Shown here in pieces: positions 3,451 to 29,413 of a stretch of 64,000 nt of DNA. How positions within the stretch are numbered: position 1 is the first letter of the stretch; every line of letters starts with the position of its first letter. The position numbers were made by a program, and so were the translations under genes. Source of the DNA: Pachysolen tannophilus NRRL Y-2460 (Eukaryota); assembly GCA_001661245.1 (NCBI GenBank), contig KV454017.1:124001-188000 (forward strand), given 5' to 3'. The notes beneath the pieces were generated by a model. It did not search any database. It was given only the letters and a program-made list of their open reading frames with translations, and was not told where the DNA came from.

Positions 3451-5511
3451 ATGGGTAAAAGAAGAGTTGATAGAGGCTTACAGTCTCGCAAGAAGAAGCT
3501 TAAAGAAGAACAGGATTCTAGGTTGTCCACGGGTCTATTTAATAGCGGTGTAGAGCCGGATGTAAGTGGTGATGATGATTATATGGATGATGAGGAAGAG
3601 ATTATAATAGATAATGATGGAGATGGTCAATGGGAAAATGAGGAACAAGATTATGAGTTGGTTCCTAGGAATTTGAGTAGTTCTGAAAGAGTGGTGGAAG
3701 GTTTGCCGATCAAACGTTTGGATGGTAAAATTGAAAGAGTTATGAGAAAAAAAGAAGAAAAAAAGGATAAGGATGAGGATGAGGATAAGGAGGAAGAGGA
3801 GATTAAAATAATTGAAGATGAAGAATTAGGAGAACAAGAACAATTTGATGATGATTTTGATGAGGATAGTTCTCTTACATTAGAAGAAAAAATTCTTAAG
3901 TTGAAAGAAGAGATTGCAGATTTAGCTGAGAAATTAATAGAAGATCCTGAAGAAAATATTAGTTCATTAACAAGGTTACGTCGTATGGCTGAATCAAAAA
4001 ATCCATATACTTCAAGATTATCTACTTTAGCATTAGTTCCAGTTTTTAAAACAATTTGTCCCAGTTATAAGATAAGAGCATTAACAGAAACTGAAAAAAG
4101 GGAGAAAGTTTCAAAAGATGTTGCAAAATTAAGAAATTTTGAACAAATTTTAGTTTTAAATTATAAAAATTATATTAATATATTATTTGAAAATTCTAAA
4201 AATTTTTCAAATACAACTGGTCGATATTGTACAATTGCAGCATGTGAAATTGTATCTTCTTTACGTCATTTTAATTTTAGAGCTGATGTGATACAAATAT
4301 TATGTTTCCGTATTACAAGGAAACCTTTAGATGAAAAAGAATTTCAAGTTTTCCGTAAATGTGTTACAACATTAGAATCATTACTTTTAGAAGATGTAGA
4401 TTCTGGGGATATAACATATGATGTTGTAAGAATTTTATCAAAATCTTTAAAAAATCGATCATATAAAGTAATTGAAAGTGTGGTGAATATTTTTTTATCA
4501 TTATCTTTATTATCAGATTATGATCCAAATAATATTTCAAATGATGATAATGGAATAGCAAAGATTAAACAAAGGAAAAAAGATAGAGTATATTTATCTA
4601 AAAAGGAAAGAAAACAAAGAAAAGAAAGAAAATTAATCGATGAAGAAATGAGAAAAGCTGAACAAGCTGTTAGTGAAGAAGAAAGAGAAAGATTTCAAGC
4701 ACAAACTTTGAAAATGGTCTTGAGTACTTATTTAGAAATTTTGAAAAATAAACCTGAATATTTGATGGCACCAGTGTTGGAAGGTTTAGCTAGATTTGGT
4801 CATATGGCAAATTTTGATTTATTAGGAGATTTCTTGGAAGTTTTAAAAGAAGTTTCTTCAGATATTTTATCACAATATACATTGGATAATATTATTTTAA
4901 CTCCAAATCAAATAAGACAAGTTTTATTATGCATTACAACATCTTTTGCTTTAATTGCTAATCATGCAAGTTATAAAGTATCTATTGATCTTTCAAAATT
5001 TGTTGACTCATTATATAAAGTTTTACCTTTAGTTTCTTGTCTTGATGCTGATATCGAATTTTCTCATAAATCTTTAAGATTAATTGATCCACTTTCTCAT
5101 ATAGAAGGAGAACCTTTCAAACCAGCAGTCAACGTATCAACTGAAATCGAACTATTACTTAAAAGTTTAGAAAGTATTTTTTTCAAATCAAAATCTGGTA
5201 GTAAATTAAGAGCAGCTGCTTTTACAAAGAGAATATATATGGCGTTATTACATACTCCAGAAAAATCATCAATAGCTTTATTAAAATTTGTTGAAAAATT
5301 AACTTCTAAATACCCTGAAGTTGCAGGGTTATATTCTACAGAAGATAGAATCTCAAATGGAATTTTCTTAATGGAAGAAGATGAACCTACAAGAAGTAAC
5401 CCTGATGCAAGCACTCTTTGGGAAACTGTACTATTAGAAAAACACTATTGTCCTAGTGTTGCAAAAGGAGCTAAATCCTTGTTAACAAAGTCAAAGTTAT
5501 CTGACAAGTAG
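3451..5511 (+). CDS. NOC3: Nucleolar complex protein Noc3
   Basis: EQDYELVPR, KLIEDPEENISSL, PSYKIRALTETEKREKVSK, LEGLARFGHMANFDLLGDFL, LWETVLLEKHYCP. Confidence 0.95.
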   Translation: MGKRRVDRGLQSRKKKLKEEQDSRLSTGLFNSGVEPDVSGDDDYMDDEEEIIIDNDGDGQWENEEQDYELVPRNLSSSERVVEGLPIKRLDGKIERVMRKKEEKKDKDEDEDKEEEEIKIIEDEELGEQEQFDDDFDEDSSLTLEEKILKLKEEIADLAEKLIEDPEENISSLTRLRRMAESKNPYTSRLSTLALVPVFKTICPSYKIRALTETEKREKVSKDVAKLRNFEQILVLNYKNYINILFENSKNFSNTTGRYCTIAACEIVSSLRHFNFRADVIQILCFRITRKPLDEKEFQVFRKCVTTLESLLLEDVDSGDITYDVVRILSKSLKNRSYKVIESVVNIFLSLSLLSDYDPNNISNDDNGIAKIKQRKKDRVYLSKKERKQRKERKLIDEEMRKAEQAVSEEERERFQAQTLKMVLSTYLEILKNKPEYLMAPVLEGLARFGHMANFDLLGDFLEVLKEVSSDILSQYTLDNIILTPNQIRQVLLCITTSFALIANHASYKVSIDLSKFVDSLYKVLPLVSCLDADIEFSHKSLRLIDPLSHIEGEPFKPAVNVSTEIELLLKSLESIFFKSKSGSKLRAAAFTKRIYMALLHTPEKSSIALLKFVEKLTSKYPEVAGLYSTEDRISNGIFLMEEDEPTRSNPDASTLWETVLLEKHYCPSVAKGAKSLLTKSKLSDK

Positions 5512-10375: not shown

Positions 10376-12019
10376 ATGCCAGTTCCTCACGGTGGAAAAC
10401 TTGAAGATTTGATCGCTAGAGATAGTTCTATCAAAAATGATTTATTGAAAGAAGTTCATTCTTTGAAGTCAATAGTCTTGACAGAACGTCAGTTATGTGA
10501 TTTAGAGTTAATCTTGAATGGTGGGTTTTCACCGTTGACTTCGTTTATGAACGAAAAAGATTATACTAGTGTTGTAGAGAATATGAGATTAGCTAATGGT
10601 TTATTATGGACCATGCCAATTACTTTAGATCTTTCCAAGACAGATGCTTCGAAATTTTCAGTTAATGAAAGAGTTACGTTGAGAGATTTAAGAGATGATA
10701 AAGCTTTGGCTATAATTACTATTGAAGATATTTATGTTCCAAATAAGCAAGTTGAAGGTGAAAAAGTTTTTAGAGGTGTTGCAGATCATCCTGCAGTTAA
10801 ATATTTGAATGAAGTTGCAGGTGATGTTTATATTGGTGGTCAAATCCAAGCTATTAGTTTACCAACTCATTATGATTATACAGAGTTGAGGAAAACTCCT
10901 GCGCAATTAAGGGCCGAATTTGCTAATAGAAATTGGTCAAAAATTGTTGCATTTCAAACTAGAAATCCAATGCATAGAGCTCATAGAGAATTAACTGTAA
11001 GAGCTGCTAGAGAACAATTAGCAAATGTCTTGATTCATCCAGTTGTTGGTTTAACTAAACCTGGTGATATCGACTACCATACAAGAGTAAAAGTTTATAA
11101 AGAAATCATTAAGAAATATCCAAATGGTTTAGCTCTGTTGTCATTATTACCATTGGCTATGCGTATGGGTGGTGATCGTGAAGCTGTTTGGCATGCAATC
11201 ATTAGAAAAAATTATGGATGTACACATTTCATTGTTGGACGTGATCATGCTGGACCAGGTAAGAGTCTGATTACAGGTAAAGATTTCTATGGTCCTTATG
11301 ATGCTCAAGAATTAGTTGAACAATTTAAAAATGAATTAGAAATTGAAGTTGTTCCATTTAGAATGGTAACTTATCTTCCTGAAGAACAAAGATATGCTCC
11401 AATCGATGAAGTTAAAGAGGGTACAAAGACTGCTACTATTTCAGGTACTCAATTAAGACAAAAATTAAGAGATGGTTCCGAAATCCCTGAATGGTTCAGT
11501 TATTCTGAAGTTGTTAAAATCTTAAGAAATTCTTATCCACCACGTAATGAACAAGGTTTTACTTTATATTTAACAGGTTTACCTAATTCAGGTGTTGACT
11601 CGTTAACCGATGCTTTACAAGCTACTTTTAATCAATTTGACAGTACAAGACATATTGCAGTTTTAGATCATGATGTTGAACAATCAGCTTTACCATTTAT
11701 TGCTCATGAATTAACAAGATCAAGAGCAGCTGTCATTATTGGTAACCCTTCAGTAGCCCCATCTTCAGCTCAGTTGAAACAAGTTGAAAAAGAAGTTTCA
11801 AAAGCTGGTTCTTTTATATTGATTTCATTAAAAGGTTCAGTTCATGAATGTAGTCAAATAGATAGAAAAAATTATTATTCTAATGGAAGACAAGATATTA
11901 AAAATTATGTTGCTCCAGAAAATCCAACTATTGAAGTCGATGTCTTAAATGAAGGAACTTTAGTTTCTGTTCAAAAAATCGTATTATACTTGGAAGAAGA
12001 AGGTTTCTTCAAATTTTAA
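10376..12019 (+). CDS. MET3: ATP sulfurylase
   Basis: [37 protein letters not shown]; degenerate APS-kinase-like C-terminal domain. Confidence 0.98.
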
Positions 12020-12300
12020 ACTTAGAAAAATATACAAATATACAAATATACATTAGTTTTTGATCTTTTCAAAATTTTTTCTTTTTTTTTTTTTTTTTTT
12101 TAATTATTGTTATTATTACTATTATTATTATAGAAGAATTATTTATTTATCATATCATGTGATTATAAGGTTTACTCATAAATCACACATGTGAACTAAA
12201 GTTTTATTTCTTTTCGTTCTTTTTTTTTTTTTTTTTTTACTTTTTTTTACTTTTTTTTTTCTTTTTTTTTTATCTTTACTTCGATATGATCAAATTTCCA

Positions 12301-13788
12301 TTAAAAGCTACATTTCCTAAGAAACTCTTTACAAAAAATTGTACTATCGATGATATTATAAGTTAAATATAAATAAGAGTCACAATCAAATTTTTGAATT
12401 GTCTTGTTGACACAATTAGGATTTTCATCATCTCCTCCATTATTATCATCTCCATTAACATTGATAAATGTTATATCTTTATCGCATTTAAATAACGCTT
12501 TAACTACCTTGGGGAAAGGTTTATAATCTAAATTGGAACTTGTCTTGTTAAATTTATAAGTAGATCTCGTTATAATTGGATTTAAAAAATTATTATAAAT
12601 TTTGTTGAAAATCATGCCAACTTTTGCAGAATTCATTTTGGTAATAATATCAATTTCGTCATTAAATTCTTTCGAATATTTTTTATCTAATAAATTTCCC
12701 AATTTAACTTTATGATAAAATATAGTATTTATAATATTCTTGGTTTGATTCAAACTAATTTCATTCAAATAAGTTGCAAAATTTGTAAATACATTTTCAT
12801 TTTCTGTAGGGTCACGAGAACATGTTAGACACAATTTTGCACCATTAGAATTTGAGCTATTAGAATTTAAGCTATTCCCATTATTTGAACCATCTTGTAA
12901 TTCTGGAGCTACTGAAACTTCCGGATCCTGTGATCCATTATTATTATTATTATTATTATATCCATCCAATTCTTTACCGCAGATACCACAATGATTTGCA
13001 GCCTGACTCGCAAACGCAATTTCAATATCTTCATTATTAATATCGCCTCCAGCAATCTCATTAATCAATTTCGAATGTTGTTTGTCATATGAAATCAACT
13101 CATTATCAATCTTGGACATATCAACAGTATTAACATGATTCTCACTTGCCATTGGCACTGGAGAATCATACAACGAATGTCCATTTATTGTATTATCAAT
13201 ATTCCTCATCGTTTGCTCATGATACTCATAATGTTTAAAAGGAGGACTTTGACGAAGAGGCTGCTGCAGTACTACTTGGTTCACCACAGAAGTGTTTCCA
13301 AATGGAAGAAAATTAGTATGATGGGATTCAGGTTCACCGCCAATATGGGCGGGAGATCTATGAAGCCCCACCTGGTGAGGCCCGTGAGGACCGTGAGACC
13401 CGTGAGATACTTGGAGACCTTGGGACCCGTGCCCATGGGGCCCCCGCCCAAGCTGCCCATGTTGCCCACCAACATTATTATTATTATTATTCTGAAGCAA
13501 AATATCCGAAGCACTTAATCTGGGCAGTCTTTGGAGTAACTGCAGCTCTTTCAACTCATGTTTCAAAAGCAACTGTTGTTGTTCCTCAATAGATTTATCC
13601 TTCAACTTAACCAGTCTTTTCTGTTTCCTTTCAATCTGCCGGCATGGCTGACATGTCTTATACCTCAAATCTTCCAATGGCTCAGAACTCGACCGTGCCC
13701 TCTTACAACGCCGACAAATACTCGGCAACTGAATAATCTCAAAAGTAGTACTATCTGCCGTAGTAACCGTTGTTGTTCTCTTAACCAT
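12301..13788 (-). CDS. Cys-rich putative zinc-binding transcription regulator; true C-terminus probably displaced to + strand 12162-12194
   Basis: N-terminal C-x2-C-x17-C-x2-C plus basic tail; central CGIC...CLTC; C-terminal FKC...KFDC domain lacking the expected His pair. Confidence 0.7.
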   Translation of the reverse strand: MVKRTTTVTTADSTTFEIIQLPSICRRCKRARSSSEPLEDLRYKTCQPCRQIERKQKRLVKLKDKSIEEQQQLLLKHELKELQLLQRLPRLSASDILLQNNNNNNVGGQHGQLGRGPHGHGSQGLQVSHGSHGPHGPHQVGLHRSPAHIGGEPESHHTNFLPFGNTSVVNQVVLQQPLRQSPPFKHYEYHEQTMRNIDNTINGHSLYDSPVPMASENHVNTVDMSKIDNELISYDKQHSKLINEIAGGDINNEDIEIAFASQAANHCGICGKELDGYNNNNNNNGSQDPEVSVAPELQDGSNNGNSLNSNSSNSNGAKLCLTCSRDPTENENVFTNFATYLNEISLNQTKNIINTIFYHKVKLGNLLDKKYSKEFNDEIDIITKMNSAKVGMIFNKIYNNFLNPIITRSTYKFNKTSSNLDYKPFPKVVKALFKCDKDITFINVNGDDNNGGDDENPNCVNKTIQKFDCDSYLYLTYNIIDSTIFCKEFLRKCSF

Positions 13789-14333
13789 TATATCACTTTA
13801 TATCTCTTCTTCTTCTTCAATTCTTTTCTTTTTTTTTTTGTATTCTAAGAAAACCTGTCAAAACTCGAAAAGTCGTATAAATTGAAATCTTATAAAAATA
13901 CAATCAAACAACCAACAACCAAAAACAAATCAATACCAATCTATATAAGCAAAACCCAATCTTCCCGATGATGATTGAAATGATACCCGATAATTTAATG
14001 AAAAGAGTATTATTATTATTATTATACTAATAACTCCGTTCCGTTTCTTTTACATTTTTCATACGTTTTCTATAATTTTTTTTCTCCAGATAAACTACTT
14101 TTTTTCCCCTAAGAAAGAGAAATTGATGGTGAAGATGGTGAAGATGGTTAAGTCTTTTACCGTTAAATCAAGAATTAAAGGAATTGGAAAGGTTTTAGAT
14201 CAGTATGGGGTATTGGAATAGAAGATTTTGAATTTTACTTTTTAGTTAAAGAATTGATGTTATAAATCTCTTTTTCTTATTATAGCGAATTTTTATAAAA
14301 AGATCTCAAAAATTTTTTTTTTTCACTTTTTTT

Positions 14334-15707
14334 TTACATAACTAACCATACACCAGTAGTAATGATCGACACTCCGACAACCACTGTGATTATTCCTGCG
14401 CCTGCCCTGTCTCCTGCGTCCAAGGTTAGGGGTTCCTCGACTTCGTCAGTGGATTGTGTTCCAGCGGCACCGTTACCGATTGAAGAGCCTCCATCTGTTG
14501 CAGTATAAGGAGCTGGTCTTTCTGGAGTTAACAAGTTTTGTATTACTTCTAAAGCACACATTTGTTCACCCAACCCGTAGTATCCATCCCAGCCGTTATA
14601 TGACCAGTCTAGACCGCATGTGTGTCCATCGTAACCGCCAACACATGATTGAGCTGCAGCTTTTGCTGATGTTTCTATTATAGGCATGATTGTGGTATAT
14701 AATGAGGGAACAAGTTTCATTGTTAAACCATAAGCTCGGACCAATAATGCTTTAAACGATCGTTGATCGGTATTACAAGTACCTGAAGTTTGACATGCAG
14801 CTTCATAAATCACAGAATTATTTAAGAAAACCAGTGTACCTTGTAAAAAATTATCAGTTCTTGTTAACCAAATCTCATCTTCTGTATAATTATATAAATA
14901 AGCACATCCAGACATCATCATCAGCGCTGTATAAGTCCATTGAAGTTCTGTAATTACAGAACAATTATCAGTTATACTGGCACCATCATAAATAAACCAA
15001 GAAGGACTTTCAACAATAAATCCTACTCCAATAAGCCAATCATAAACTTTTTCGCACCATTCAACATATGTATCATTGGAAGTATATCTTGCTAACCGAG
15101 CACCAAGGTGGAAAAGTCCCGCGTTCGAAACACTATTCTTATAATCATAACCTGCATTCCATTGGAAAATTTGCCATCTAAGACCTCCATCACAATTTGC
15201 AGTATCCCATCTAGCTGACATTGTATTGAAAACAGCTTGTGCTAAATATAACCATTGAGGTTCATCAGATGAAGGATTGGTGAAATTCCTCTCTGTGGCA
15301 GCCATAACCGCTATCCCCCAAAAAACTTGATCATCATTTCCTTCAGTAGTTGATTGATTTAATGGAATATAATCCCAATCATCTCCAACTTGATATAATA
15401 ATGCTTCCTTTATTGTATCAACATAAGTATCATTTTGTAAAAAAAACCAATTGTCCAACATCGAACCCCAAGCAAACCCTGCTTCCCACCAATAATAAGG
15501 TGAAGTGAATTCTCCAATAGTCCCACCATACTTATAACCTTCATAATAATCCATTAACCCAGTAGCGATTAAACCAGTTGCATTTTCAATAGACTCGTAC
15601 GATGAAAGATCCAACAAGATCGATTCTCCAAACCCAAAAAGACCAACTATTGTGAAAAGTGACCACCACCACAGCAGCAGCACTGAGCTAAAACACTTTA
15701 ATTTCAT
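14334..15707 (-). CDS. DCW1: GH76 mannan endo-1,6-alpha-mannosidase, GPI-anchored
   Basis: PYYWWEAG, DYIPLNQSTTEGNDDQ, PQWLYLAQAVFNTM, GGLRWQIF; signal peptide and hydrophobic tail DRAGAGIIT; ATG 15707. Confidence 0.9.
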   Translation of the reverse strand: MKLKCFSSVLLLWWWSLFTIVGLFGFGESILLDLSSYESIENATGLIATGLMDYYEGYKYGGTIGEFTSPYYWWEAGFAWGSMLDNWFFLQNDTYVDTIKEALLYQVGDDWDYIPLNQSTTEGNDDQVFWGIAVMAATERNFTNPSSDEPQWLYLAQAVFNTMSARWDTANCDGGLRWQIFQWNAGYDYKNSVSNAGLFHLGARLARYTSNDTYVEWCEKVYDWLIGVGFIVESPSWFIYDGASITDNCSVITELQWTYTALMMMSGCAYLYNYTEDEIWLTRTDNFLQGTLVFLNNSVIYEAACQTSGTCNTDQRSFKALLVRAYGLTMKLVPSLYTTIMPIIETSAKAAAQSCVGGYDGHTCGLDWSYNGWDGYYGLGEQMCALEVIQNLLTPERPAPYTATDGGSSIGNGAAGTQSTDEVEEPLTLDAGDRAGAGIITVVVGVSIITTGVWLVM

Positions 15708-15914
15708 CTTACACCTCACGGTTCCTATCTATTATATTTGCCGATAATCAAATTAAATCCAGGGTTTTCCTTTCCGCTCGTGATCCTCTTTTATTATTAG
15801 AACTTTTTTTTTTTATTTTTTTTAATTATTTTTTTTCGCGTTTTTCCGAAGAGGAGAAGAACGTGATTTTAAGTTCTCCCAAACGGAATCTTAAAAGAAA
15901 ACGGAGATGGAGGT

Positions 15915-15993
15915 GGAGATGGAGGAATTAAAAAGCGGAAACGGAGAACTTAAAAAGTGGAGATGGAGAATTTGAAATGCGGAGACGGAGAAG
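15915..15993 (+). repeat. 22-bp minisatellite, about 3.5 copies, in DCW1/ILV1 divergent promoter
   Basis: GGAGATGGAGGAATTAAAAAGC / GGAAACGGAGAACTTAAAAAGT / GGAGATGGAGAATTTGAAATGC / GGAGACGGAGAAG. Confidence 0.8.
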
Positions 15994-16256
15994 AAGCCTA
16001 AATAAAAAAAAAATCGTCTTTTTCTATCCATTGAATGAAAAATCATTGATACCGCTATTTTTTAGTCATAGAAAATGGTTATGATTATTATTGCAAATTG
16101 AAAATTACACTGTTCATTGTCATTATTTGGGATTTTCTTCAAGTTTGGTTTATTTTCTTAAACTGAGTTGTTGTCAAGTTTTTTTTTTTTCTTTTGTTGT
16201 TGTTGTTGTTGCTGTTGCAGAGATTAAATTGATATTTGTACTTGTTGTATTTCAAT

Positions 16257-17984
16257 ATGATTGTTAATAGTCCGTTACTGAATATGGTTTTTAGTGGAGG
16301 AAAAGTACTAAATCGTACTTTTCAATTGCAACGCTTTTTGTCATCACTGTCTTCACTGTCATCACTATCGTCGCTGGCGAAATTGCAGAGACAAAAAAAT
16401 TTGGAAAAATATCCTGATTTAAAAGAAGCCGATTTGCTAGTAAATGGGAAACCAGATTATGTGAAATTAGTATTAACTTCTAGGGTTTATGATGTAATGG
16501 ATGAGACTCCTACAACTTATGCAACTTCTTTATCTCAAAGGCTTGGTGTTAATGTAGTTTTGAAAAGAGAAGATTTAGTTCCAGTTTTCTCTTTTAAATT
16601 ACGTGGGGCTTATAATATGATTGCTCAATTATCTTCTGATAGGTTACTGAAAGGTATTATTGCATGTTCTGCTGGTAATCATGCTCAAGGAGTTGCTTAT
16701 AGTGCTAAGAACCTTGATATTCCTGCCACTATTGTTATGCCAGTTGCTACTCCTTCAATTAAATATCAAAATGTTTCAAGATTAGGTTCTCAAGTTGTAT
16801 TATATGGTGAAGATTTTGATGAAGCTAAAGCTGAATGTACAAGATTGGCAACAAAAAATGGACTAACCAATATCCCACCGTTTGACCATCCTTATATTAT
16901 TGCAGGACAAGGTACTATTGCGATGGAAATATTGAGGCAAATGAATATCAACAAGGTAAATGCAGTCTTTTGTCCTGTTGGTGGTGGAGGTTTGATTGCC
17001 GGTGTAGGTGTTTATTTAAAAAGATTGGCACCACATGTGAAAATTATTGGTGTTGAGACTTATGATGCAGATGATTTATACCAATCGTTGAGTGCACATA
17101 AAAGAGTTCAGTTAAATAGTGTTGGAATGTTTGCAGATGGTACTGCAGTGAAACTTGTTGGTGAAGAAACATTTGACGTTTGTAAAGAAGTGGTTGATGA
17201 AGTTGTTAAAGTCTCTACAGATGAAATTTGTGCTGCTATAAAAGACATTTTTGAAGATACAAGATCAATAGTGGAACCTTCAGGTGCAATGGGTGTTGCT
17301 GGTTTGAAAAAATATATTGTTGATCATCCAGAATTAGATCATTCAAGTTCAACATATGTTCCAATTCTATCTGGTGCAAATATGAATTTTGATAGATTGA
17401 GATTTGTCTCTGAACGTGCAGTTCTAGGTGAAGGTAAAGAAGTTTTCATGATGGTGGTTATACCAGATCATCCAGGTACTTTCTTTAAATTACAATCTGC
17501 AATACATCCAAGAGCCGTTACAGAATTTTCTTATCGTTCAGATGGCAGAAATAATGGTGTTGCTCATATATATACTTCTTTCTCAGTTATAGATAGAGAA
17601 AAAGAATTAGCTCAGGTCATGCTGAGTTTGCGTAAAGAAGGTTTTGATGCAATGGATATCAGTGATAACGAAATGGCTAAATCTCATGGTCGTTACCTCG
17701 TGGGAGGTTCTGCAAATATTGAAAATGAAAGATTACTCTGCTTTGAATTTCCAGAACGTCCAGGTGCATTGACAAAATTCTTGAAAGGAATGAAAACAAA
17801 TTGGAATTTGACTTTATTCCATTACAGAAACCATGGTCATGATATCGGTAAAGTTTTAGCAGGTATAAGCGTACCTCCAGAAGATAATGAGAAATTTCAA
17901 GAGTTTTTGGATAATTTAGGATATAAGTATAACGAGGAAACTGATAATGTGGTTTACCAAAAATTTTTATTGAGAAATGATTAA
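16257..17984 (+). CDS. ILV1: Threonine dehydratase (biosynthetic), mitochondrial
   Basis: [51 protein letters not shown]; start ATG 16257 (or 16284). Confidence 0.97.
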
Positions 17985-18445
17985 ATAAACTTGTTTATAT
18001 AAGTAAGTAAGTATCTAAAAATTTATTATTATATTTTATTTTTTTTTTTTTTTACAAAACAACAACTTTGTTTAGATTCTTAAAACATTGACTTAGCATT
18101 GAGTCTATTATGAAATGAAATAAAAAGATAAAAAGCTATATAGATATAGAAAAAAAGAAAAGGCTGCTGCATTGCTAGTAATAGGACATAAAAATAAAAT
18201 AATAAAAACATATCTTTATAAAAAAAAAAAGAAAAGGAATTTGAACCTAATAAAATACGCCAAGAGCATCATTTTCACAAAAAAAAAAAAAAGAAAGAAC
18301 CTGCGTAGACCTTTCATACTTTGAGTTTTCCTTTTTCTTTCTTCTCAAGGTATTCAAAAACAGGACCGAAAAATGGGTGAAACAACAGGAGAACTAAAAG
18401 AAGTTAAATTTTCACGTTTTAAAAAAAGAGTCATGAGGCATTCTT

Positions 18446-19492
18446 TTAAATGTCAATTAAACTTGGACCCCCTTCCCCGTTGCTCTTATGCTGCTGTTGT
18501 TGAGACTGTGGAGCATTACCAAAACCATATCCTGTATAGGCCGGTATTATTCCAGTCGAAGGAACACCAGTGTATTGCGTATCAAAAAAGGGATTTGCTG
18601 ATCCATATTCTTGTTTGTAGCCTGTACCAGAAGAATTGATAAAAGTTCCTGTCTTTGTATGTTGAGCAGGAATTCTTGTGGCACCTGTATTTCCAAAAGT
18701 ATCCAAATCAGGACCAGTTGCCAATAATTGATTCAAATCAGAGTATTGCTCATTATTCTTCCGAGATCCAGTAAATGTCTGTCTTAATGGCTGGGATTGC
18801 TGAGGTTGCAGTTGTTGTTGTTGTTGTTGCAGTTGTAGTTGCAGTTGTTGTTGCAGCTGTTGTTGCAGCTGTTGCTGTAAATGATCTAAACTATTGTTAT
18901 TATTATTTTCGGATTGATGGTTCATAGCAAACGGATTATTAGAGCCTGTTTTAAGAGGTAATAATTGTTGTTGTTGTTGTTGTTGTTGTTGAGCAGCCAA
19001 TTGTTGCTGCTGTAATAGGTATGCCTGTTGTTGCAGTTGCAGCAGCTGTTGTTGTTGCAACAAGTACGCCTGTTGCAGTTGCAGTTGCTGCTGCAGTAAC
19101 AACTGTTGTTGTTGTTGTTGTTCTTGCAGTTGCAGCTGTTGTTGCAGTTGTTGCAGCTGCAAGGCTGCCAAGTCAAAATCAGAAAACTGTTGTTGGGGCT
19201 GTTGGCCAAACGCAGAGAATCCAGGATTGCCGCCGTTTTGATAAATAGGTTGTCCAAAAATATCATAACCAACAATGATTCCATATTGTGATTGCTGTTG
19301 TTGAGGCTGATCACTCAAATCCAATAAGTTTTGATTTTGTTGTTTTGATTTTCTCATTTCATCTTCTTCCAAGCTCAATTTTAATGCTTTTTGTAAACTT
19401 TCATCAGAGCTTGATCCTAACCTTCTACGTCTTTCTTCTTCTTCAGCAGTCAATCTGCTTTCTTCTAAAGCTTTTTGTAATTCAGCATCATA
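18446..19492 (-). CDS. ENT2: Epsin (Ent1/Ent2) C-terminal two-thirds, no start codon of its own
   Basis: YDAELQKALEESR and DESLQKALKLS UIMs, LLDL box, Q/A tract, two NPF motifs (TGSNNPF, SANPF), terminal clathrin box SLIDI; in-frame TAA immediately upstream of 19492. Confidence 0.88.
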   Translation of the reverse strand, partial: YDAELQKALEESRLTAEEEERRRRLGSSSDESLQKALKLSLEEDEMRKSKQQNQNLLDLSDQPQQQQSQYGIIVGYDIFGQPIYQNGGNPGFSAFGQQPQQQFSDFDLAALQLQQLQQQLQLQEQQQQQQLLLQQQLQLQQAYLLQQQQLLQLQQQAYLLQQQQLAAQQQQQQQQQLLPLKTGSNNPFAMNHQSENNNNNSLDHLQQQLQQQLQQQLQLQLQQQQQQLQPQQSQPLRQTFTGSRKNNEQYSDLNQLLATGPDLDTFGNTGATRIPAQHTKTGTFINSSGTGYKQEYGSANPFFDTQYTGVPSTGIIPAYTGYGFGNAPQSQQQQHKSNGEGGPSLIDI

Positions 19493-19735
19493 TTAATTAA
19501 AATATATTTAATTGCTTTTTAGTTTTGTCTTCAGTATCTTGTATTGGCTTTCACTTTGAATAAATTGAACTAGTGATTGATTAATTGTTTGGTTTTTTTT
19601 TTTTTTTTTTTGGTTTTTTGGTAGAAACAGAAAAAAAGATCAAAGATTAAGAGATTAAGAAATTAAGAAATTGTATTTCATTAGTTGGGGTTAATTTATT
19701 GGAAAAGAAAATTATTTTGGAAATATATATATGAA

Positions 19736-20269
19736 ATGTCAAAGTCTATTCTTCGTCAGGTTAAAAACATTGCAAATGGGTATTCCAGCGCCCAGGTTAT
19801 GGTTAGGAATGCTACATCCAATGAGCCTTATGGTCCAAGTACGGTAGAAATGGAAAATGTTGCGGAGCGTACTTTTGATAGTAGTGAATTTTTGGAAATA
19901 ATGGATATGGTTGATAAAAGATTGAATGATAAAGGTAAGAACTGGAGGCATGTTGCTAAGGCTTTAACTTTATTGGATTATTTGGTAAGATATGGTCATG
20001 AAAATGTTGTATTGTGGTCAAAGGACAATATCTATATTATAAAAACTTTACGTGAATTTCAATATACTGATGATAGTGGCCATGATCAAGGTGCTATTAT
20101 TAGGGTTAAGGCCAAAGAGTTGACCAGTCTTTTGATCAATGATGAGAGATTACGTTCTGAACGTAATCTGGCTAAGGAAAGTACTGGAAGAAGACGTAAG
20201 CATAGAAAGAATCGTGGTTACAGAGAAGATGGTTTAGATGAAGAACCAGTATTAATTTGTACAAACTAA
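19736..20269 (+). CDS. ENT2: Epsin (Ent1/Ent2) N-terminal ENTH domain, on the opposite strand from its C-terminus
   Basis: MSKSILRQVKNIANGYSSAQVMVRNATSNEPYGPS...DKRLNDKGKNWRHVAKAL...DQGAIIRVKAKEL; ends abruptly in PVLICTN*. Confidence 0.92.
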   Translation: MSKSILRQVKNIANGYSSAQVMVRNATSNEPYGPSTVEMENVAERTFDSSEFLEIMDMVDKRLNDKGKNWRHVAKALTLLDYLVRYGHENVVLWSKDNIYIIKTLREFQYTDDSGHDQGAIIRVKAKELTSLLINDERLRSERNLAKESTGRRRKHRKNRGYREDGLDEEPVLICTN

Positions 20270-20517
20270 TTATACAATTTATCTGTTCATTTCCAATACA
20301 AAATGGGGGTTTTAACTCGTTTTCTCTTATTCCATTTTATGAAAATTCGCCTTTTTTGCCTAAAACGGAGTAGATTCCTAAAACGGAAGTTACAGCTACA
20401 AAAACTTCCTAATTAAGAAGGCATAATGGTGATTAATTCAAATCTATATAGAGAAGTTCATTTCATTTCAATAAACCGATGACGAAAATGAAAAGAAATT
20501 GGGGAAAAAGAAGTAGG

Positions 20518-21972
20518 TCATCCTGTGGCAGTGGTGATGTTATTGTTTTCTGGGTGAGTTGCGTGCAAGTCGCTGGTTTTTGCTTGTATTAAATTTGTTT
20601 TAATATTGTTGGATTCGCAACCGGGACAATTATGTAAAATTTCATGGATAAAGACATCACAGTCTATACAGAAATCGTTATGGCAATTGGGGCATCTATA
20701 GCGAGAGCTGGTAATAAGCTCCTTCTTGCTCTTATTACCGTTTGTTGTGACGTTTCCGATGCTAACAGAGTTTCCTGAAGGTACAGCTTCCGGGAATTCT
20801 GTTTGACAACCAAAACAGTTGTAAGCATCATATTGTTCACTTTTGGGCAACTCGTTAAACAATTTTAAAGGAAACAAATGGTGGTAGGACCTGGCCAAAT
20901 GTGTGGACAAGATAAGCATCATGTTACAACATGGACATATTGCAGGTAATGAACAAATTTTTGATGAACAATTGGGACATATATAACCACCATAGACTAA
21001 TTTAGAATGACATGAACAGAAAGTTGGCGAGTTTTCAGAGACTCTTGAAGGAAACCCCATTTTAACTAAAGTGAATCCTTTTGTTTGTTGAGAAATTGAT
21101 TTTGTTATAGCCACTGGTGTAACAGCTTCCATTAATAATTCTTTAAAATGTGCTTCATTTAAAATAATTCCATATGAAGATTCATCTCCAAAATTTGTTT
21201 TTTTACAAATTTCTTTACATATGGCAACTTGAGCTGTTAAACCAATTATTCTAACTCTAATTTTTTCTTTTACTAAAGATTGAATAGTCTTGTGTACATC
21301 TCCAGGATCAGAAGTTAATAATGCACCAAATATAATCAATACTTCTCTTGTAGAATGTGAAGCAACATGCATTAGTAAGCCTCTTGCCATCTCTAAAACA
21401 TTTTGTAAAGTCGGATCACCTTGAGGCTCTAATCTTCTCATTGATTTCAACAGTTCAATATGATCATTAGGATTACCACTAACTTCACTAACCAACGTAG
21501 CCAACCCATTTCTCATTATAACTATACCCAATTGTGAAATAGGATTCTGATCAAAATATTCATTTACAAATTCAATAGCATATAAAATGGTTAATGAAGC
21601 TCTATTAGGTCTTAAATCTTTTTCAGCCATTACCAGTGAAAAATCTAAAACTAATATTAAAGTTCTAATAATACCTCTTTGAAAAGGAGTCACATTCTTC
21701 AAATATCTTTTCTTTCTTGCCTCCACTAATCCAGACACTATTGTCTCTAAACTTCCAGCCTCATCTTCCTTCACTATATCCCAACTCCTCTGGTAATCAT
21801 CTTCCCATGAATATCCACCTCCATTACCTGCAGCAAGTTTTCTATTTTGACTAGAATCTCCTCCACCTGTCTTACGCCTCGTTCTATTGGATATTCCTGG
21901 TCTACTATCATGATTAGAGTTCTTCACAGGTGAAGACAATTCACCAATATACTCATCATCAGATTCATCCAT
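20518..21972 (-). CDS. SSL1: TFIIH p44 subunit Ssl1
   Basis: GYSWEDDYQRSWD, TPFQRGIIR, FDQNPISQLG, vWA domain plus C4 and RING-like zinc fingers, HEILHNCPGCES. Confidence 0.97.
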   Translation of the reverse strand: MDESDDEYIGELSSPVKNSNHDSRPGISNRTRRKTGGGDSSQNRKLAAGNGGGYSWEDDYQRSWDIVKEDEAGSLETIVSGLVEARKKRYLKNVTPFQRGIIRTLILVLDFSLVMAEKDLRPNRASLTILYAIEFVNEYFDQNPISQLGIVIMRNGLATLVSEVSGNPNDHIELLKSMRRLEPQGDPTLQNVLEMARGLLMHVASHSTREVLIIFGALLTSDPGDVHKTIQSLVKEKIRVRIIGLTAQVAICKEICKKTNFGDESSYGIILNEAHFKELLMEAVTPVAITKSISQQTKGFTLVKMGFPSRVSENSPTFCSCHSKLVYGGYICPNCSSKICSLPAICPCCNMMLILSTHLARSYHHLFPLKLFNELPKSEQYDAYNCFGCQTEFPEAVPSGNSVSIGNVTTNGNKSKKELITSSRYRCPNCHNDFCIDCDVFIHEILHNCPGCESNNIKTNLIQAKTSDLHATHPENNNITTATG

Positions 21973-22287
21973 CTTAAACCCAAAAACGTTGCCAAATTAA
22001 TTCGATGATTTATAAAATGTTCGTGATTTTTTGCTATATATATATATATATAAATAAAAAATAGTACATTTAATTACATATATATATTGACACGGTATAA
22101 TAACCATACAAAGAATACTTTACGACGAGATATAACAAAACAATAATGGAAATGCAATTTAATATTCCTATCTAACCTTGGTATATAATAATAATAATAA
22201 CAATAATAACAATAACAAAAAAAAAAAAAAGCTGTTGATTGAAAAGTTCACTTATAATAAATGTGCGTAGTAAAAAATTTAATTTTT

Positions 22288-24294
22288 TTAAACAGGAACT
22301 TCCCTACCAACAGCAAAACTAATTAACAAGTAAGTATTTAAAAAACTAATAAATGCCCAAACTAATATAGCAAGAACCGTTGTAATTGGTCCATTGCTCA
22401 TGTCTTTATATTGAATTGGTTCTTCATCTTCTTCGACAACTCTATCTGCCCCGATTGTATCTGCTCCAGTTATAATATCATCTTCAAGATTGAGTGAATC
22501 ATCATCATCATCATCATCAGCATCATCAGCATCAACATCAGCAGCACTGTTTCTACTAACTAAAGTTTCTGTTAAATCATCCATCAGTACATTTTCATAA
22601 CCATTTCTTGTTCTTTTCTTTATTTTCCTGTTTATATTGCAACTTCTATTAAGTGGTACTCTCATTATTTTTTTATTACAAGAAAAATAAATTAAAGGAG
22701 CAGAAACAAATGGTAATAATAAACTTAATATAACTTGAGACAGGTTCAAAGCTGCAGATAAACCTTTTCTACCACTAACCAATACTAAAATTAAACAAGG
22801 TGTAATAGCTACAGCTCTTGTTAATAATCTTCTTAGAGTAGGAGGTAATGTCCAATGTAAAAAACCTTCACTAACCATTTGACCTGCTAAAGTACATACA
22901 ATTCCTGCAGATTGTCCTGATAATAATAATGCCAGAGCATAAACTGACCCAGCAGTTTTAGAAAGATATTTCGATAATAAATCATAAATGGTAAACAAGT
23001 CAGCTTCTGAAGTAGAAACATCTTCATCTGTATTGACACCAATTGTTGAACCTGCAACAATTAATATAGCAGAATTGACAAAAAGTGCTACTGTAAACAA
23101 GGAAATAACTAATTCTGCAATACTATAGGACATTGTATCACGGATTGCCAGTAATGAAGGACGATAAGTTAAATAAATTTCTTGATCTTCATCAATTTCT
23201 TCTTCTTCTTCTTGATCTTCTTCTTGATCTTCATTTTCTAAATTGTTTAAAGATATTTTCTTATTAGGAGGAATATAATTTCCAGCTTTTTCATCATATG
23301 ATCTTAACCTTGATTGAACTAAACCTGAACCCAAATATAAAGAATGAGGCATTACAGTAGCACCTAATATTGCTAAACTTAAATATAATCCATCACCAAC
23401 AACAACATCTTGAGAAGGTAAAAAACCTGTCATAACATCTTTAAAAGAAGTCATTGAAGAAACTTCAAATAATTCAATTGCAAAACAAATTACAGTTGAT
23501 GCTACTAATAATGTAACAAATCCTTCAAAAATTCTTATAATAAGCATTGGACCATTTGGTCTATAAGCCATTAATACAACCAAAACATCTATAACAGTTA
23601 ATATAACTCCAAAAATTAAAGGGATATTAAATAAAATATTTAACAGAATCAGTGTACCAACAACTTCTGCTAAATCTGTCAGAATAATTGCAATTTCAGT
23701 TAGTATATAAATTGTAATATTTAATTTTTTCGGTAAATGTTCTCTACAATTTTGTGCTAAATCTAAACCTGTAACTGAACCAACTTTTATACATAATACT
23801 TGTAAAAAACATGCTAATAAATTTGATATCAATATACTAAATAATAATTTATATTTATGACTAAAACCAGCACTTACAGAAGTTGAATAATTACCTGGAT
23901 CCAAATATGCAACACTAACAAGGATTCCCGGACCTATGAAACGTAAATATTTTTTAAAAACTTCAAGTAATTTTTTAAATAATATAACCAATTTATTTTC
24001 TGATTGTATAAAAGTTTCATCACCAATTGAAAGTACTTCTTCTTCTTCATCATCATCTACTTGTTGTAAATTATGATGTACCTTAGATGATTTTTTCAAA
24101 TTTCGAGTTCTTTTTCTATCCCCCCGACTTTTTTTTGTAGAACTATTAATATCATTATCCAACACCGACTCCCCATTTAAATCCATATCCGCTACTGTTG
24201 ATGATTCAGTTGTATGAGATGATGTTACACTTTCATTCATCTCATGTAATAAATCAGTAAGCGGTGTCTTTGAATGATCTTTTGGAAAATTCAT
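22288..24294 (-). CDS. SMF2: NRAMP divalent metal (Mn) transporter
   Basis: FIGPGILVSVAYLDPGNYST, TGLDLAQNC, GATVMPHSLYLGS, TLAGQMVSEGF; best resembles Smf2; ATG 24294. Confidence 0.85.
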   Translation of the reverse strand: MNFPKDHSKTPLTDLLHEMNESVTSSHTTESSTVADMDLNGESVLDNDINSSTKKSRGDRKRTRNLKKSSKVHHNLQQVDDDEEEEVLSIGDETFIQSENKLVILFKKLLEVFKKYLRFIGPGILVSVAYLDPGNYSTSVSAGFSHKYKLLFSILISNLLACFLQVLCIKVGSVTGLDLAQNCREHLPKKLNITIYILTEIAIILTDLAEVVGTLILLNILFNIPLIFGVILTVIDVLVVLMAYRPNGPMLIIRIFEGFVTLLVASTVICFAIELFEVSSMTSFKDVMTGFLPSQDVVVGDGLYLSLAILGATVMPHSLYLGSGLVQSRLRSYDEKAGNYIPPNKKISLNNLENEDQEEDQEEEEEIDEDQEIYLTYRPSLLAIRDTMSYSIAELVISLFTVALFVNSAILIVAGSTIGVNTDEDVSTSEADLFTIYDLLSKYLSKTAGSVYALALLLSGQSAGIVCTLAGQMVSEGFLHWTLPPTLRRLLTRAVAITPCLILVLVSGRKGLSAALNLSQVILSLLLPFVSAPLIYFSCNKKIMRVPLNRSCNINRKIKKRTRNGYENVLMDDLTETLVSRNSAADVDADDADDDDDDDSLNLEDDIITGADTIGADRVVEEDEEPIQYKDMSNGPITTVLAILVWAFISFLNTYLLISFAVGREVPV

Positions 24295-25248
24295 TTTTTC
24301 TTTTTTCTTTCTTTTTTTTTGGCTTTCCAATATATAGAAAAAAAATTATATTTACTATTGAAAACTTGAAATTTGTATAGGTTTACAAAAACTTTAAAAG
24401 AAAAAACAAAAAAAAAACACAAAATCACTATCTTTTTTTCCTTTAAAAAACCAATAAAGATAAATAAAATAAGCGAAAAGCAATTAAAATGAAAATAATT
24501 GAAATAGAAATAAAATCAATGCAATTTATAGTAATAATTAATATTAATTGTATTTGTATTTGTATAAGTATAGTTTAACAAAAATGCTTTTTACCTAGTT
24601 ATTTCTTGCCGGGATGACAGCGAACCTTTAAAAGAAAAACAAAAAAACAAAAAACAAACAAACAAACAAACAAAAACAAACAAAAACACCAAGGTTTAAA
24701 TATATATATATATATATATATAGATATATAGACTTTGACTTTTCAATAAACCAAAGACTCAATTTGTAAATAAACTGATGATATTTTCTTTTATTAAAAA
24801 AAAAAAAAATTTAGTAAATTTATTGTAATAATTATATAGTATAAATTAATCTTAACTTTTTTTGCTTTTGTTTTAACGCTGAAAAAGAGTTTTTTTTTCT
24901 TTTTTCCTCTTTTGAAGAAAGAAATTTGCGGAAAAAATACAAGCTAGAAACAGCCCCAAATTGCATCATCATCATCTCTAGCATACACACATGGCCCCTA
25001 TGTGTAACAGCCCTAGTAGTTTTTTAAAAAACTTTCAAGAGCCCCTAAAAATAAAATTACCTGTTTCGTAAATTAATACTTTCAAACACTACCATGTTTA
25101 ATTTTCTTTTTTTTTATATAAAAAACTATGTGAAAAACTGAAAAAAATTTTTTTTTTCTTTCTTATATAGTAAGAAAGAGAAACACATTTAGTTAGTAAG
25201 TAGAGTGAATAGAGTGAGCGAGTGGATTTGTGTTTTTTTTTTTTGGGG

Positions 25249-26363
25249 ATGGTAGATTTTAAAGGAAAGTTGGTTCTTGCGCCTATGGTTAGAATAGGAG
25301 AACTTCCTACGAGGTTATTGGCATTAAAATATGGATGTGATTTAGTATGGGGTCCTGAGATTATTGATAAGAAAATTTTAACATGTGAAAGATTTGAAAA
25401 TGAAAAATTAAATACTATTGATTTTTTATCAACTAAGAATCAAAATTCTGGATCTAAAAATAATGAAAATTTTTCTAATTTAGTATTTAGAACTTATCCA
25501 TTAATTGAAAAAGATAAATTAATTTTTCAAATGGGTACTTCAAATCCTGATCTTGCTGTTTCTGCTGCAAAAATTATTATTAATGATGTTAGTGGTATTG
25601 ATATTAATGCTGGTTGTCCAAAACATTTTTCAATTCATAGTGGTATGGGCGCTGCTTTACTTTCCACTCCAGAATTATTACAAACAATTCTTAAAAGACT
25701 TGTTGAAGAAGTTGGTAAACCAAATAAAAAACCAATTAGTGTTAAAATACGACTTTTACCAACAAGAGAAGAATCATTAAATTTAATTTCAAAATTACTT
25801 ACAACAGGAATATCAAATTTAACTTTACATTGTAGAACAAAGACAATGAGAAATAGAGAACCTCCAATAAGAGATTATTTAAAAGAAATTATAGAAAAAT
25901 GTAATGAACATAATGTAAATTTTATAATAAATGGTGATATAAAATCTAGAAAAGATTTTTTTTTTTACAATCTCAATATGGAAAATCTATTGGTTGTATG
26001 ATTGCTAGTGCTGCTGAATTAAATCCAACTTGTTTTAATGAATTTGGTGAATTACCTTGGTATATTACATGTAAAGAATTTATTAAATTATGTGATCAAT
26101 TTGAAAATCATAAAGGAAATACAAAATATTGTTTAACAAGAATGATACCAAGTGGTAAATCTAAATTTTCAAAAAAATTACATGATTTAATATCAAGAGC
26201 AAAAACTCATGATGAAATTAAAAAAATAATTTTACAAGATTTAAATGAAAATGATATCTTAAAAGAACAAGATATTAAAAAAAGAAATATACAACATGAT
26301 TATTCACAACCAAATTCTTTTAAAAAGATAAAAGTTGGCACTACTGGTGATGATGAAACATAA
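25249..26363 (+). CDS. SMM1: tRNA-dihydrouridine(20) synthase Dus2, split by frameshift at T11 run 25956-25966
   Basis: LVLAPMVRIGELPTRLLAL, GIDINAGCPKHFSIHSGMGAALL; second frame continues LQSQYGKSIGCMIASAAELNPTCF...NTKYCL. Confidence 0.9.
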
Positions 26364-26705
26364 AACATAATAAGCACAAATATATACATTACTTTTTTTT
26401 TTTTTTTTTTTTTTTTTTCTTTTTTTCTTTTATATATAAAGTGTTAAAGGCATGTTCTATGTACAAATCAACAAGAAAGAAAAGAAAAATAACATCATAG
26501 AAAAGGGGGAAGAAAATCCAACATACATATTAATCATGACATTAAGATAAAAACAGAGCAGAAAAAAGATTCTAATAATAATAATAAAAAAGAAATATTT
26601 TTTTTTTCTCTCTCTCTCTTTCTCTTTCTTTTTCTCTTTTCTTTTTTTTATAATAGAAGATAATAATAAAAAAAAAAAAAAATGCACATCTCTTAAGGAA
26701 AAGTA

Positions 26706-27422
26706 TTATGATAATATGGATTTAAGACCGCACCAAACTGCCGCTGTAGCAGCCATCAATGCAGAACTAATTCCCATTGGTCTTAGTCCTTTACTACTTT
26801 TAAACAATGCTCCTGCTAATGCACCTGCAGTTATTGAATTCAAAGCATCATGCTTACCTCTTAAACCATCAATACTCGAATTAATCAAATTATATGTCAA
26901 TGCCAAGACACCAGCAGAATTACCTAAAAATGGACCTCTTTTAGTAATAGAATTTAAAACAGTATTTAATTTTAATTTTGCAGGAGCATTTTGTGGCATC
27001 TTTGATAAACCTTCAGATAATCCATATGCACCCCCAGTACCTAAACCCAAGAGATACACAGCACCAGTACCATAACATAAATCATCAGTCCAACCTCTAG
27101 AAGGAATTAAACCTTGAGAACCTTCCATATTAGACAATTGTTCATCTTCAAGATCAAGATATTCAATTCCTTTATCCAATCCAGCTAATGGATGTAATTT
27201 TGAAGCATCAAACCCAGTAGAACCCGATATAATATTACTAACATCATTAATCGATGATGGATCAAAACCTAAAGTTTCCTTTAAAGATTCTTGTGATATA
27301 TTATTATTATTGTTGTTATTATTATTGTTATTATTATTACTGCTACTGCTGCTGCTACTGGTATTTTCAAGTTGCCTCTGATCTTGAGTATCCTGTTTTT
27401 TACCACCAAATATCCATGACAT
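26706..27422 (-). CDS. TIM23: Mitochondrial inner membrane translocase Tim23
   Basis: LHPLAGLDKGIEYLDL, GSQGLIPSRGWTDDLCYGTG, TKRGPFLGNSAG. Confidence 0.98.
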   Translation of the reverse strand: MSWIFGGKKQDTQDQRQLENTSSSSSSSNNNNNNNNNNNNNISQESLKETLGFDPSSINDVSNIISGSTGFDASKLHPLAGLDKGIEYLDLEDEQLSNMEGSQGLIPSRGWTDDLCYGTGAVYLLGLGTGGAYGLSEGLSKMPQNAPAKLKLNTVLNSITKRGPFLGNSAGVLALTYNLINSSIDGLRGKHDALNSITAGALAGALFKSSKGLRPMGISSALMAATAAVWCGLKSILS

Positions 27423-28231
27423 GATTCACTTTTCAAAAATTATACTAATAATATATTTACAAAAAATACAACTTTGGATTCCTAATTCTTTTTTTTTTTA
27501 AAAAAACTTTAGAATGACTGGCCACCATTCAATACACTTTATCAAAACTTCTTGTATGAATTTTTCTTTGTTTCTTCCATAAAATTTTTCAAAAAAAAAA
27601 AAAAAAATTGATGAAACTTGTTGACACGTCAAAAAACAGAGGAAAAAAAAAGAGAACAAGAAAAAAATGGCAGAAAGAACGTATTAACCAGTAAGTAAAT
27701 AAAATACTTTTTTGAGGAGGAAAAATGAAATCTGAAGGCACTGAGAATAGGAAACTCGAAACAGATGAATCCTTTGAGAAGATATAGATACTGGGTTTAA
27801 AAAAAAAAACTGGAAACAAGAAAAAGGTCATAAATGTATGACCAATTGTAGATAATTAACTTCCATCAACTAACTATTACTTTTATAATTATGGTTAAAT
27901 TTTATTACGTTTGATTACCCTTTTGGGAGTTTTTGGATATTATTGCACTACTTGTGTCTTTTTGTACTTTTTTTTTTTTTTCGAATTTCCTTTTTAAGAT
28001 CTCTCATCGATGCTGGAAAATGTTCTGTTTCTGCAATATTATGCATAATAGTAGGGTTAGTACCCATGATAACAAATCTTTTAGATGATCAGTAACAACA
28101 GATTATAAAAAATAATCCAAGAGAAGATGATGATGAGGTGATATATAAATGGAGACAAGACGGGATGGGGATCTCAAATTACTTTCCCCTTTTGAGTTAT
28201 ACTTTATTTTTTTTTTTGTGTTTCTTCAGTT

Positions 28232-29413
28232 ATGCCGGTTTTTAAGAATCTTTTTGTAAAAGACAAGTCTACCAGAGGTGTTATTAAACCTGCGTTCCCC
28301 ATTTATGGTCCGGAACATAGGTCTATTGTAACACCAATGAGAAGACCTTCTAACATTGATGCAGTCTTGGATAAGTACTGGAATGTTTCACATGCTTCGC
28401 AGCAGGAACTAGAAAGTGCAGGTGGTACTACAACTACAACTGGAACTGAGTCTGAGATTGAAACTGCTTCAATTTTAGAAAATTTTAGAAATTATTCCAC
28501 AATTTTCTTTGAAGATGATTCCAATAACGAATCAATGAGTCAAAATTGGAATCAGGATCCACAAACAGAAGATTGGAATTCAATGAATTCAATGAATTCT
28601 GGTACAACTTCCGGTACAAGTTCAAGATTGATTTCAAAAAATGAACCTGTTGAAGAGACAGAACTGGATTTAAGTTCAATTGTGTTTATTGATGGCTCAG
28701 ACGTATTTTGTAGTAATAGTCTGGAAGTGGATACCACCATGTTTGGATTAACAGAACAAGATTATCAGACCACACATGAGGATGTAATCACCGATTCCAC
28801 AATAGATACAGAATATAAAAATGAACATATGAATAAAGAAGAAGATGAAGATGAAGATGAAGAAGAAGAAGAAGAAGAAGAAAATCCAAACAAACCATTA
28901 ATTCCTTTAAACACGAAGTGTTCATTCAAACCAGTTTGTTTTAAATATTCACCAAGAATCTACGAATTGACAAATTTAGAAAATCGAGTATTAAAGATAT
29001 TAGACCAACAATTAAGAATAACTTGTGGTGATGAAATAGTAGATAATTTCCCACGCTACTTACCCGCATACGATGCTTTCTATGATGATTTCCAATACGC
29101 ATTCAACAGTAGTGCATCTAGCTTTTTAAGTAATAATACTTCTTCAAATAGTTCGCATACAATCTCTTCAGGTTCAAGTTCATTATATAATCAATATAGT
29201 ATTGATTACCCCAAGGTACCAACATTTTTTACTCAAACAAGTTATCAACAATTCCAACATAAACTTTTTGTTTGTATTGCAAATATTGAAGAAAATAAGA
29301 GAAGAAGAAGAGCCGTTTGTAATTCCAATATGAAGTATACGCTCAATACTAAAAATAATTGTAACCAGAAAATTACATTTCATTCCATGAAGAATAATAT
29401 TGGTGTTTTTTAA
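28232..29413 (+). CDS. Uncharacterised acidic/Ser-rich protein (orphan-like)
   Basis: 393-codon ATG ORF; TATA-like TATATAAA near 28142; no family recognised. Confidence 0.65.
   Translation: MPVFKNLFVKDKSTRGVIKPAFPIYGPEHRSIVTPMRRPSNIDAVLDKYWNVSHASQQELESAGGTTTTTGTESEIETASILENFRNYSTIFFEDDSNNESMSQNWNQDPQTEDWNSMNSMNSGTTSGTSSRLISKNEPVEETELDLSSIVFIDGSDVFCSNSLEVDTTMFGLTEQDYQTTHEDVITDSTIDTEYKNEHMNKEEDEDEDEEEEEEEENPNKPLIPLNTKCSFKPVCFKYSPRIYELTNLENRVLKILDQQLRITCGDEIVDNFPRYLPAYDAFYDDFQYAFNSSASSFLSNNTSSNSSHTISSGSSSLYNQYSIDYPKVPTFFTQTSYQQFQHKLFVCIANIEENKRRRRAVCNSNMKYTLNTKNNCNQKITFHSMKNNIGVF

Follow-up and report, generated by a model that had tools for sequence, protein, structure and literature searches.

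The contig that carries the epsin gene of Pachysolen tannophilus NRRL Y-2460 raises the question whether this yeast inverts short pieces of its own DNA or whether its public genome assembly has done so. The window, i.e., the whole stretch of 64,000 nucleotides that was analyzed, comprises positions 124001-188000 of contig KV454017.1 (C7) of a 12.6-Mb genome in 197 contigs. Two genes in it, one for the epsin and one for a protein of 494 amino acids (aa), lie in two pieces on opposite strands. An initial annotation had described this arrangement as two sub-kilobase inversions within 8 kb. Such inversions are indeed present in the text of the window, 7.2 kb apart and each with one end in coding sequence and the other in AT-rich non-coding DNA; the separated pieces are undecayed, and flipping them back gives full-length frames. 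The span of 12156-20257 given at that time has been corrected to 12161-12337 (block 1) and 19495-20249 (block 2). With a probability of about 0.93, both inversions are errors of the assembly, and both genes are intact in the organism. This explanation is favored because public contigs show the intact order, the ends are blunt or nearly so, the pieces are base-perfect, similar cases recur in the genome, and substitutions are absent from a region that does contain consensus errors nearby.

Sequence Data and Comparisons

Five public sequencing runs from two studies contain 93-94% of the sampled words, and four of these five (X1, X2, X4, and X5, from two samples) were compared with the assembly at window positions 10600-30500, i.e., over 19,901 bases. 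Translation table 26 was used throughout; a check of CUG as alanine at the single CTG codon of the part encoding the ENTH domain gave no information. The chance level of signals at the ends of the blocks was taken from 3000 random breakpoint pairs.

The Epsin Gene Is Continuous in Sequenced Cultures

Block 2 contains 241 bp of upstream DNA, followed by the first 171 codons of the epsin gene and one base. As assembled, this N-terminal part is read on the + strand as a protein of 177 aa that ends at a false stop, and the remainder of the gene lies on the other strand (Table 1). The contigs of all four runs contain the opposite-strand joints 19494/20249 and 19495/20250, with no shared letters, at depths of 120.8 and 122.4 (X5), 198.7 and 187.8 (X1), 210.6 and 199.7 (X2), and 17.7 and 16.5 (X4), respectively. 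The long contigs listed for the same runs have depths of about 80-136, 166-200, 175-205, and 15-18. The joints match the depth of the long contigs in each run, i.e., they occur at single-copy depth. On these joints, block 2 is placed at 19495-20249, with blunt ends, and is un-inverted in the organism. The contigs pass both epsin breakpoints unbroken, which suggests, given the way in which graph assembly handles alleles, that the order in the window is not a common allele.

When block 2 is flipped back, a single epsin frame of 520 aa results, which shows 62-65% identity to two homologues across its first 257-258 residues. In an alignment with seven homologues, the second piece takes up where the first one ends. 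Many breakpoint registers restore an open epsin frame, and sequence alone can therefore not fix the ends of the block. The register that looked best at first, 19493/20245 with 2 bp of microhomology, was ruled out by the run contigs. The read-defined junction is blunt, and the resulting protein exceeds the product of the register with the longest microhomology (5 bp) by four residues and that of the 2-bp register by two. As this case shows, picking breakpoints by maximal microhomology yields wrong junctions.

A second copy of the locus was considered and rejected, as a DNA search retrieved only the locus itself and two low-complexity matches of 42 bp. An intron or trans-splicing is not needed to explain the split, since the DNA contigs join the pieces directly. 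There are three strong and two weak ENTH matches in the genome. Among the strong ones, the epsin is the only one of the Ent1/2 type; the other two show 28-41% identity to Ent1/2 homologues, measured over the domain only. The truncated epsin of 177 aa, looked up as an exact sequence under two genetic codes, had no counterpart among public proteins. Of 1084 longer matches, the best 120 included no identical full-length epsin, and the highest identity among them was 72%. The tail of the protein, encoded at 18449-19492 (-), is rich in glutamine, with many CTG codons among the CAG and CAA codons and with Q/A repeats under table 26.

The Gene for the 494-aa Protein

Block 1 contains the last base of one codon, the final 10 codons, the stop codon, and 143 bp of the 3' flank of the gene for the 494-aa protein. 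In the assembly, this gene appears as an open reading frame (ORF) of 495 aa, which extends from 13788 to 12301 (-), runs into block 1, and ends at a false stop at 12301-12303; its terminal residues are absent from homologues. The right end of the block was located in the run contigs, which cease to match the window at 12338 in all four runs. Beyond this position, 77, 77, 77, and 84 letters depart from the window, and positions 12283-12337 are not among the listed skipped places.

For the left end, candidate registers were scored with a hidden Markov model (HMM) built from 11 homologue sequences only. The register 12161/12337 came first of 119 scored candidates with 144.7 bits; the next candidate reached 144.2 bits and the assembly form 126.3. 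By itself, the model cannot separate the top registers, but only 12161/12337 among them fits the contig edge. This register restores the motif C-x7-Y-x12-H-x2-H, which is found in 11 homologues, though not in a twelfth, a fragment of 120 aa, and which is absent in the assembly form and in three other registers tried. Counted from 12161, the 77 unaligned letters end at 12237, one base short of the end of a run of 19 T's within the block. Contigs would be expected to stop at such long homopolymers; another contig ends 36 letters beyond 12064, within the T run at 12082-12101. Because contig edge, homology, and homopolymer count, three partly independent lines, agree, block 1 is placed at 12161-12337 (177 bp, with an ambiguity of 1 bp). 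Thus, the intact order is given directly by contigs for the epsin gene, and by one contig edge together with homology for this gene.

The chimeric 495-aa protein is present in NCBI, UniRef, nr, and MetaClust, where its contig has 1,081,017 bases, exactly as many as C7. The flip of block 1 therefore belongs to the public assembly and has spread to protein databases. The family to which the protein belongs has no match in Pfam. In an Atlas search, all matches of the 494-aa protein scored below 0.9 and pointed to FAR1, GCM, and ALS2CR8 clusters; these leads suggest that the family may have a WRKY-GCM1-like metal-binding domain. Most homologues extend about 50-70 residues beyond the motif, and the 494-aa protein stops one residue after it.

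Sequence Signals at the Ends of the Blocks

The 2-3 bp of microhomology that had been reported for both inversions shrink to 0 bp for block 2 and 1 bp for block 1 at the true ends; 2 bp are found only at the wrong epsin register mentioned above. Among the random breakpoint pairs, 79% have 0 or 1 bp. The longest exact inverted matches within 30 bp of the ends are 6 and 7 bp for the two blocks and 5-6 bp for three further events described below, with a null mode of 6. Short palindromes, initially regarded as a signal, are likewise at chance level, as are inverted repeats: an 8-bp palindrome occurs within 30 bp of one end in 49% of the random pairs, and AATT or GTAC lies at most 15 bp away from 41% of random sites. 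As for the palindromes originally listed, AATTAATT is absent from 11900-20500, TTAATTAA is created by the junction itself, and CACATGTG is found at 12186, within block 1 and 25 bp from its edge. No end motif is shared across the five events compared. The 31-mers that span the four junctions of the assembled form (12160|12161, 12337|12338, 19494|19495, and 20249|20250) each occur only once in the sampled contig.

These results bear on the idea that the inversions toggle C-terminal domains on and off by reversible, programmed flipping, as a repeat-free eukaryotic counterpart of intragenic invertons, and that the assembly caught the minor state. The undecayed pieces would fit this idea, as would the ENTH domain, which is whole and has its own start codon and 241 bp of upstream DNA. 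Furthermore, the species inverts its MAT region, according to the available part of PMC6692504, and rare alleles are invisible in contigs. However, there are no inverted repeats that a switch could use; the ends share 0-1 bases, the inverted matches of 5-7 bp in five events lie around the null mode, and a common motif is lacking. Moreover, contigs from two studies have the intact order at full depth, and the assembler would have had to pick a rare allele independently at many loci. Such toggling is therefore extremely unlikely. The description of the inversions as very recent or reversible is likewise not supported.

Consensus Errors in the Region

No substituted letters were found between the assembly and the four runs in the 19,901 bases compared. 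The assembly is 1-2 bases short at seven places, all of them runs of T or A, and each shortage was seen in one to four runs. At one of these, position 25955, three runs carry one extra T, which lengthens a frame of 250 aa to 371 aa. The frameshifted gene, at 25249-26363 (+), is presumably tRNA dihydrouridine synthase-like, judging from its sequence. Homopolymer under-calls are typical of a pyrosequencing-type consensus.

Similar Events Elsewhere in the Genome

A scan for coding potential covered positions 1-1,018,000 of C7. It recovered the epsin and missed block 1, so that its counts are lower bounds. It yielded 473 segments, including 78 that are open at the 5' side, most of which were judged from the table to be introns or frameshifts; 13 regions, 24 long-tail segments, and four further segments were examined in the follow-up. 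Further genes split between strands were found on C7 (IML2-like and MIC19-like genes, for which the ends were placed by homology only) and on other contigs (ADE2 and RPS22). The flip in the MIC19-like gene takes in exon 1 and an intron and reaches into exon 2. When flipped back, ADE2 encodes 570 aa. In the register that retains a conserved proline, the flipped ADE2 block has blunt ends; a register with 5 bp of microhomology replaces this proline. The split gene is the only full PurK/ADE2 match in the genome. Within the RPS22 region, there is a match to snR44 at L007 1931-2038 on the minus strand.

The other flipped blocks measure about 0.7-1.0 kb, and the overall range is 177-1040 bp. C7 has four events in about 1.0 Mb, or two in 954 kb if the selected window is left out. 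Extrapolated, this amounts to roughly 25-50 detectable flips per genome, a lower bound with wide uncertainty. From a rate of 2-4 events per Mb, the expected number of pairs within 8 kb is about one (0.4-1.6) for the whole genome, and the nearness of the two blocks in the window therefore needs no hotspot.

The initial annotation had offered a local template-switch hotspot, which would have made two recent micro-inversions within 8 kb, as one explanation. It is scarcely conceivable. Apart from the short distance between the two events, which it would account for, the evidence goes against it: template switching requires inverted repeats at the edges of the block, as stated in the available part of PMC8755829, and here the edges share 0 and 1 bp; further events were found on other contigs and at distant places of C7; and the flips are not seen in the contigs of the compared runs. 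The systematic assembly fault, mentioned there in brackets, agrees with the intact run contigs and with recurrence in the absence of a shared motif. That annotation had also named what would speak against a micro-inversion process, i.e., no further cases genome-wide and no reads with the split orientations. Further cases do exist, and the listed contigs contradict the split order. Recurrence without support from reads is what an assembly fault predicts.

Weighing an Assembly Error Against Real Inversions

If the assembly is at fault, short pieces of true sequence would have been placed in reverse between correct neighbors and joined flush, without N or overlap. Most likely, small non-overlapping contigs were mis-oriented during scaffolding or gap closing; chimeric library molecules are a second possibility.

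Several points weigh against an error of the assembly. Only the assembled contigs of the runs were compared, and contigs drop rare variants; the DNA of the assembly may not be that of any of these runs. For block 1, no joint was found among those listed, with 12065-12282 skipped as a repeat and eight repeat joints dropped. The IML2-like, MIC19-like, ADE2, and RPS22 splits were identified in the assembly text by profile matches. The nearest N lies 5.3-41 kb from the four C7 events, so that their ends are not visible scaffold gaps. Finally, a coding exon contains one end, but never both, of each of the five events with mapped ends, although 70% of the contig (C7) scores as coding. This pattern would be explained if contig ends tended to fall in AT-rich intergenic DNA; most flips would then have both ends outside genes and would be invisible to a coding-potential scan.

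The alternative is that the inversions are real, fixed, blunt, and private to the clone that was assembled, e.g., after a burst of double-strand breaks. Blunt ends fit rejoining by end-joining. The junctions are without gaps and far from N's, and the public runs may have been made from cultures other than the source of the assembly. Nevertheless, private inversions are very unlikely. They would require about 25-50 gene-breaking flips without a substitution in 19.9 kb, and the clone would have lost ADE2 and much of its only Ent1/2 epsin; small indels are lacking at the read-defined epsin junctions, and the assembly contains plain homopolymer consensus errors. Inversions are far rarer than substitutions, according to the part of PMC8755829 that was available; it is therefore implausible that one clone acquired tens of such flips while 19.9 kb stayed free of point mutations. 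In more general terms, it is very unlikely that the yeast flips sub-kilobase, blunt, repeat-free blocks at many loci, either reversibly and at low frequency, e.g., to produce an ENTH-only epsin, or in a burst in a single clone. In that case, the assembly would have captured a flipped state that was collapsed away in the contigs of the other runs.

With an assembly error as the preferred explanation, the inversions have no biological weight, and the cultures from which the public runs were made carry intact genes. Some tens of flush micro-inversions, each splitting a gene, are probably present in the assembly as a whole. In comparative studies of this CUG-Ala yeast, genes may be scored wrongly as lost or truncated, and findings of split genes, trans-splicing, or scrambled genes from this genome need a check against reads first.

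Neighboring Genes and Other Irregularities of the Contig

Two intact genes between the blocks (Table 1) are presumably Dfg5/Dcw1-like (the GH76 gene) and ILV1-like (the threonine dehydratase gene). Around the N gap at 40888-41304 (40784-41446), the last 26 residues of the ORF 39542-40783 recur after the gap, in both frames. The repeat is probably a duplicated contig overlap and, as such, a further assembly fault. Elsewhere on C7, e.g., at 222563/222575, 375243, 456158-457078, and 247076-248543, several same-strand frame breaks occur between adjacent coding segments, some of them at homopolymers; these are likely more consensus errors or short introns. The segment at C7 976895-977815 is a decayed partial copy of the adjacent transporter-like gene at 979448-981223, with stops and a similar C-terminal sequence. 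In contrast to the undecayed flips, it looks like a real pseudogene.

Table 1. Positions of the flipped blocks, split genes, and neighboring features (window coordinates unless a contig is named).
Feature	Position	Strand	Size and ends	Evidence or remark
Flipped block 1	12161-12337		177 bp; 12160-12338 equivalent (1 bp ambiguity)	Contig edge and homologue HMM
True C-terminal tail of 494-aa protein, with the H-x2-H end of the motif	12161-12194	+ (wrong strand)
19-T run within block 1	12220-12238	.
Gene body of 494-aa protein, small fungal family with C-x7-Y-x12-H-x2-H	12338-13788	-
Intact GH76 gene	14334-15707	-		PF03663, E=9.3e-152
Intact threonine dehydratase gene	16257-17984	+		PF00291 and PF00585
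Epsin C-terminal part, without 5' start codon	18446-19494	-	348 codons and two bases
Palindrome TTAATTAA	19493-19500			Straddles and arises from false junction; gone after block 2 is flipped back
Flipped block 2	19495-20249		755 bp; blunt at both ends	Opposite-strand joints in 4/4 runs
Epsin N-terminal part, complete ENTH domain	19736-20249	+ (wrong strand)		PF01417, E=1.1e-46, profile 1-124 of 124
MIC19-like (DUF1690) gene, split	C7 ~325460-326373		~0.91 kb flip	PF07956 1-24 on +, 42-139 on -
IML2-like gene, split	C7 ~957607-958645		~1.04 kb flip	PF10300 2-182 on -, 182-467 on +
ADE2, split within AIR carboxylase domain	L004 ~2901-3638 (contig C4)		~736 bp	Profile 2-78 on +, 68-147 on -
RPS22, exons on opposite strands	L007 1480-2260 (contig C1)			Profile 3-47 on -, 40-126 on +

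Comparison With Known Inversion Systems and Assembly Faults

No title on inversions in the P. tannophilus assembly was found in the literature, supplements and subscription papers being outside the scope of the search, and the available part of PMC8478523 does not mention an inversion in this assembly. The species itself has an inducible inversion system, FF1 flip/flop, which turns around a MAT region of 8 kb flanked by inverted repeats of 2 kb (PMC6692504, available part). The blocks in the window share with it the species and the inversion of DNA. However, they measure 177 and 755 bp, are without repeats, and cut genes, and instead of MAT genes they contain only a 10-codon tail and half of a gene with the ENTH domain.

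Intragenic invertons of bacteria have two defining marks according to the available part of PMC10028968: inverted repeats on either side, measuring 11 bp in thiC, for example, and reads that support both orientations. The resemblance is that an inversion overlapping a gene alters or truncates the protein. In contrast to invertons, repeats are absent here, and the listed contigs give the intact order only. The microinversions by template switching or microhomology-mediated break-induced replication (MMBIR) that distinguish human and chimpanzee measure 17-33 nt and are, in the part of PMC8755829 available, always edged by inverted repeats of 3-75 nt. They are similarly clean, base-perfect, short reversals, whereas the present events span 177-1040 bp and have 0-1 shared bases.

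Thus, neither block has the inverted repeats that mark FF1, invertons, and template-switch microinversions. Local mis-orientation, i.e., inversion, is a known class of error in draft genome scaffolds. The joins described here differ from such errors in being flush, without an N gap or a repeat at the end. The two are alike in that a short block is reversed between correct neighbors, its pieces are base-perfect, independent data give the other order, and the fault recurs in an assembly with homopolymer consensus errors.

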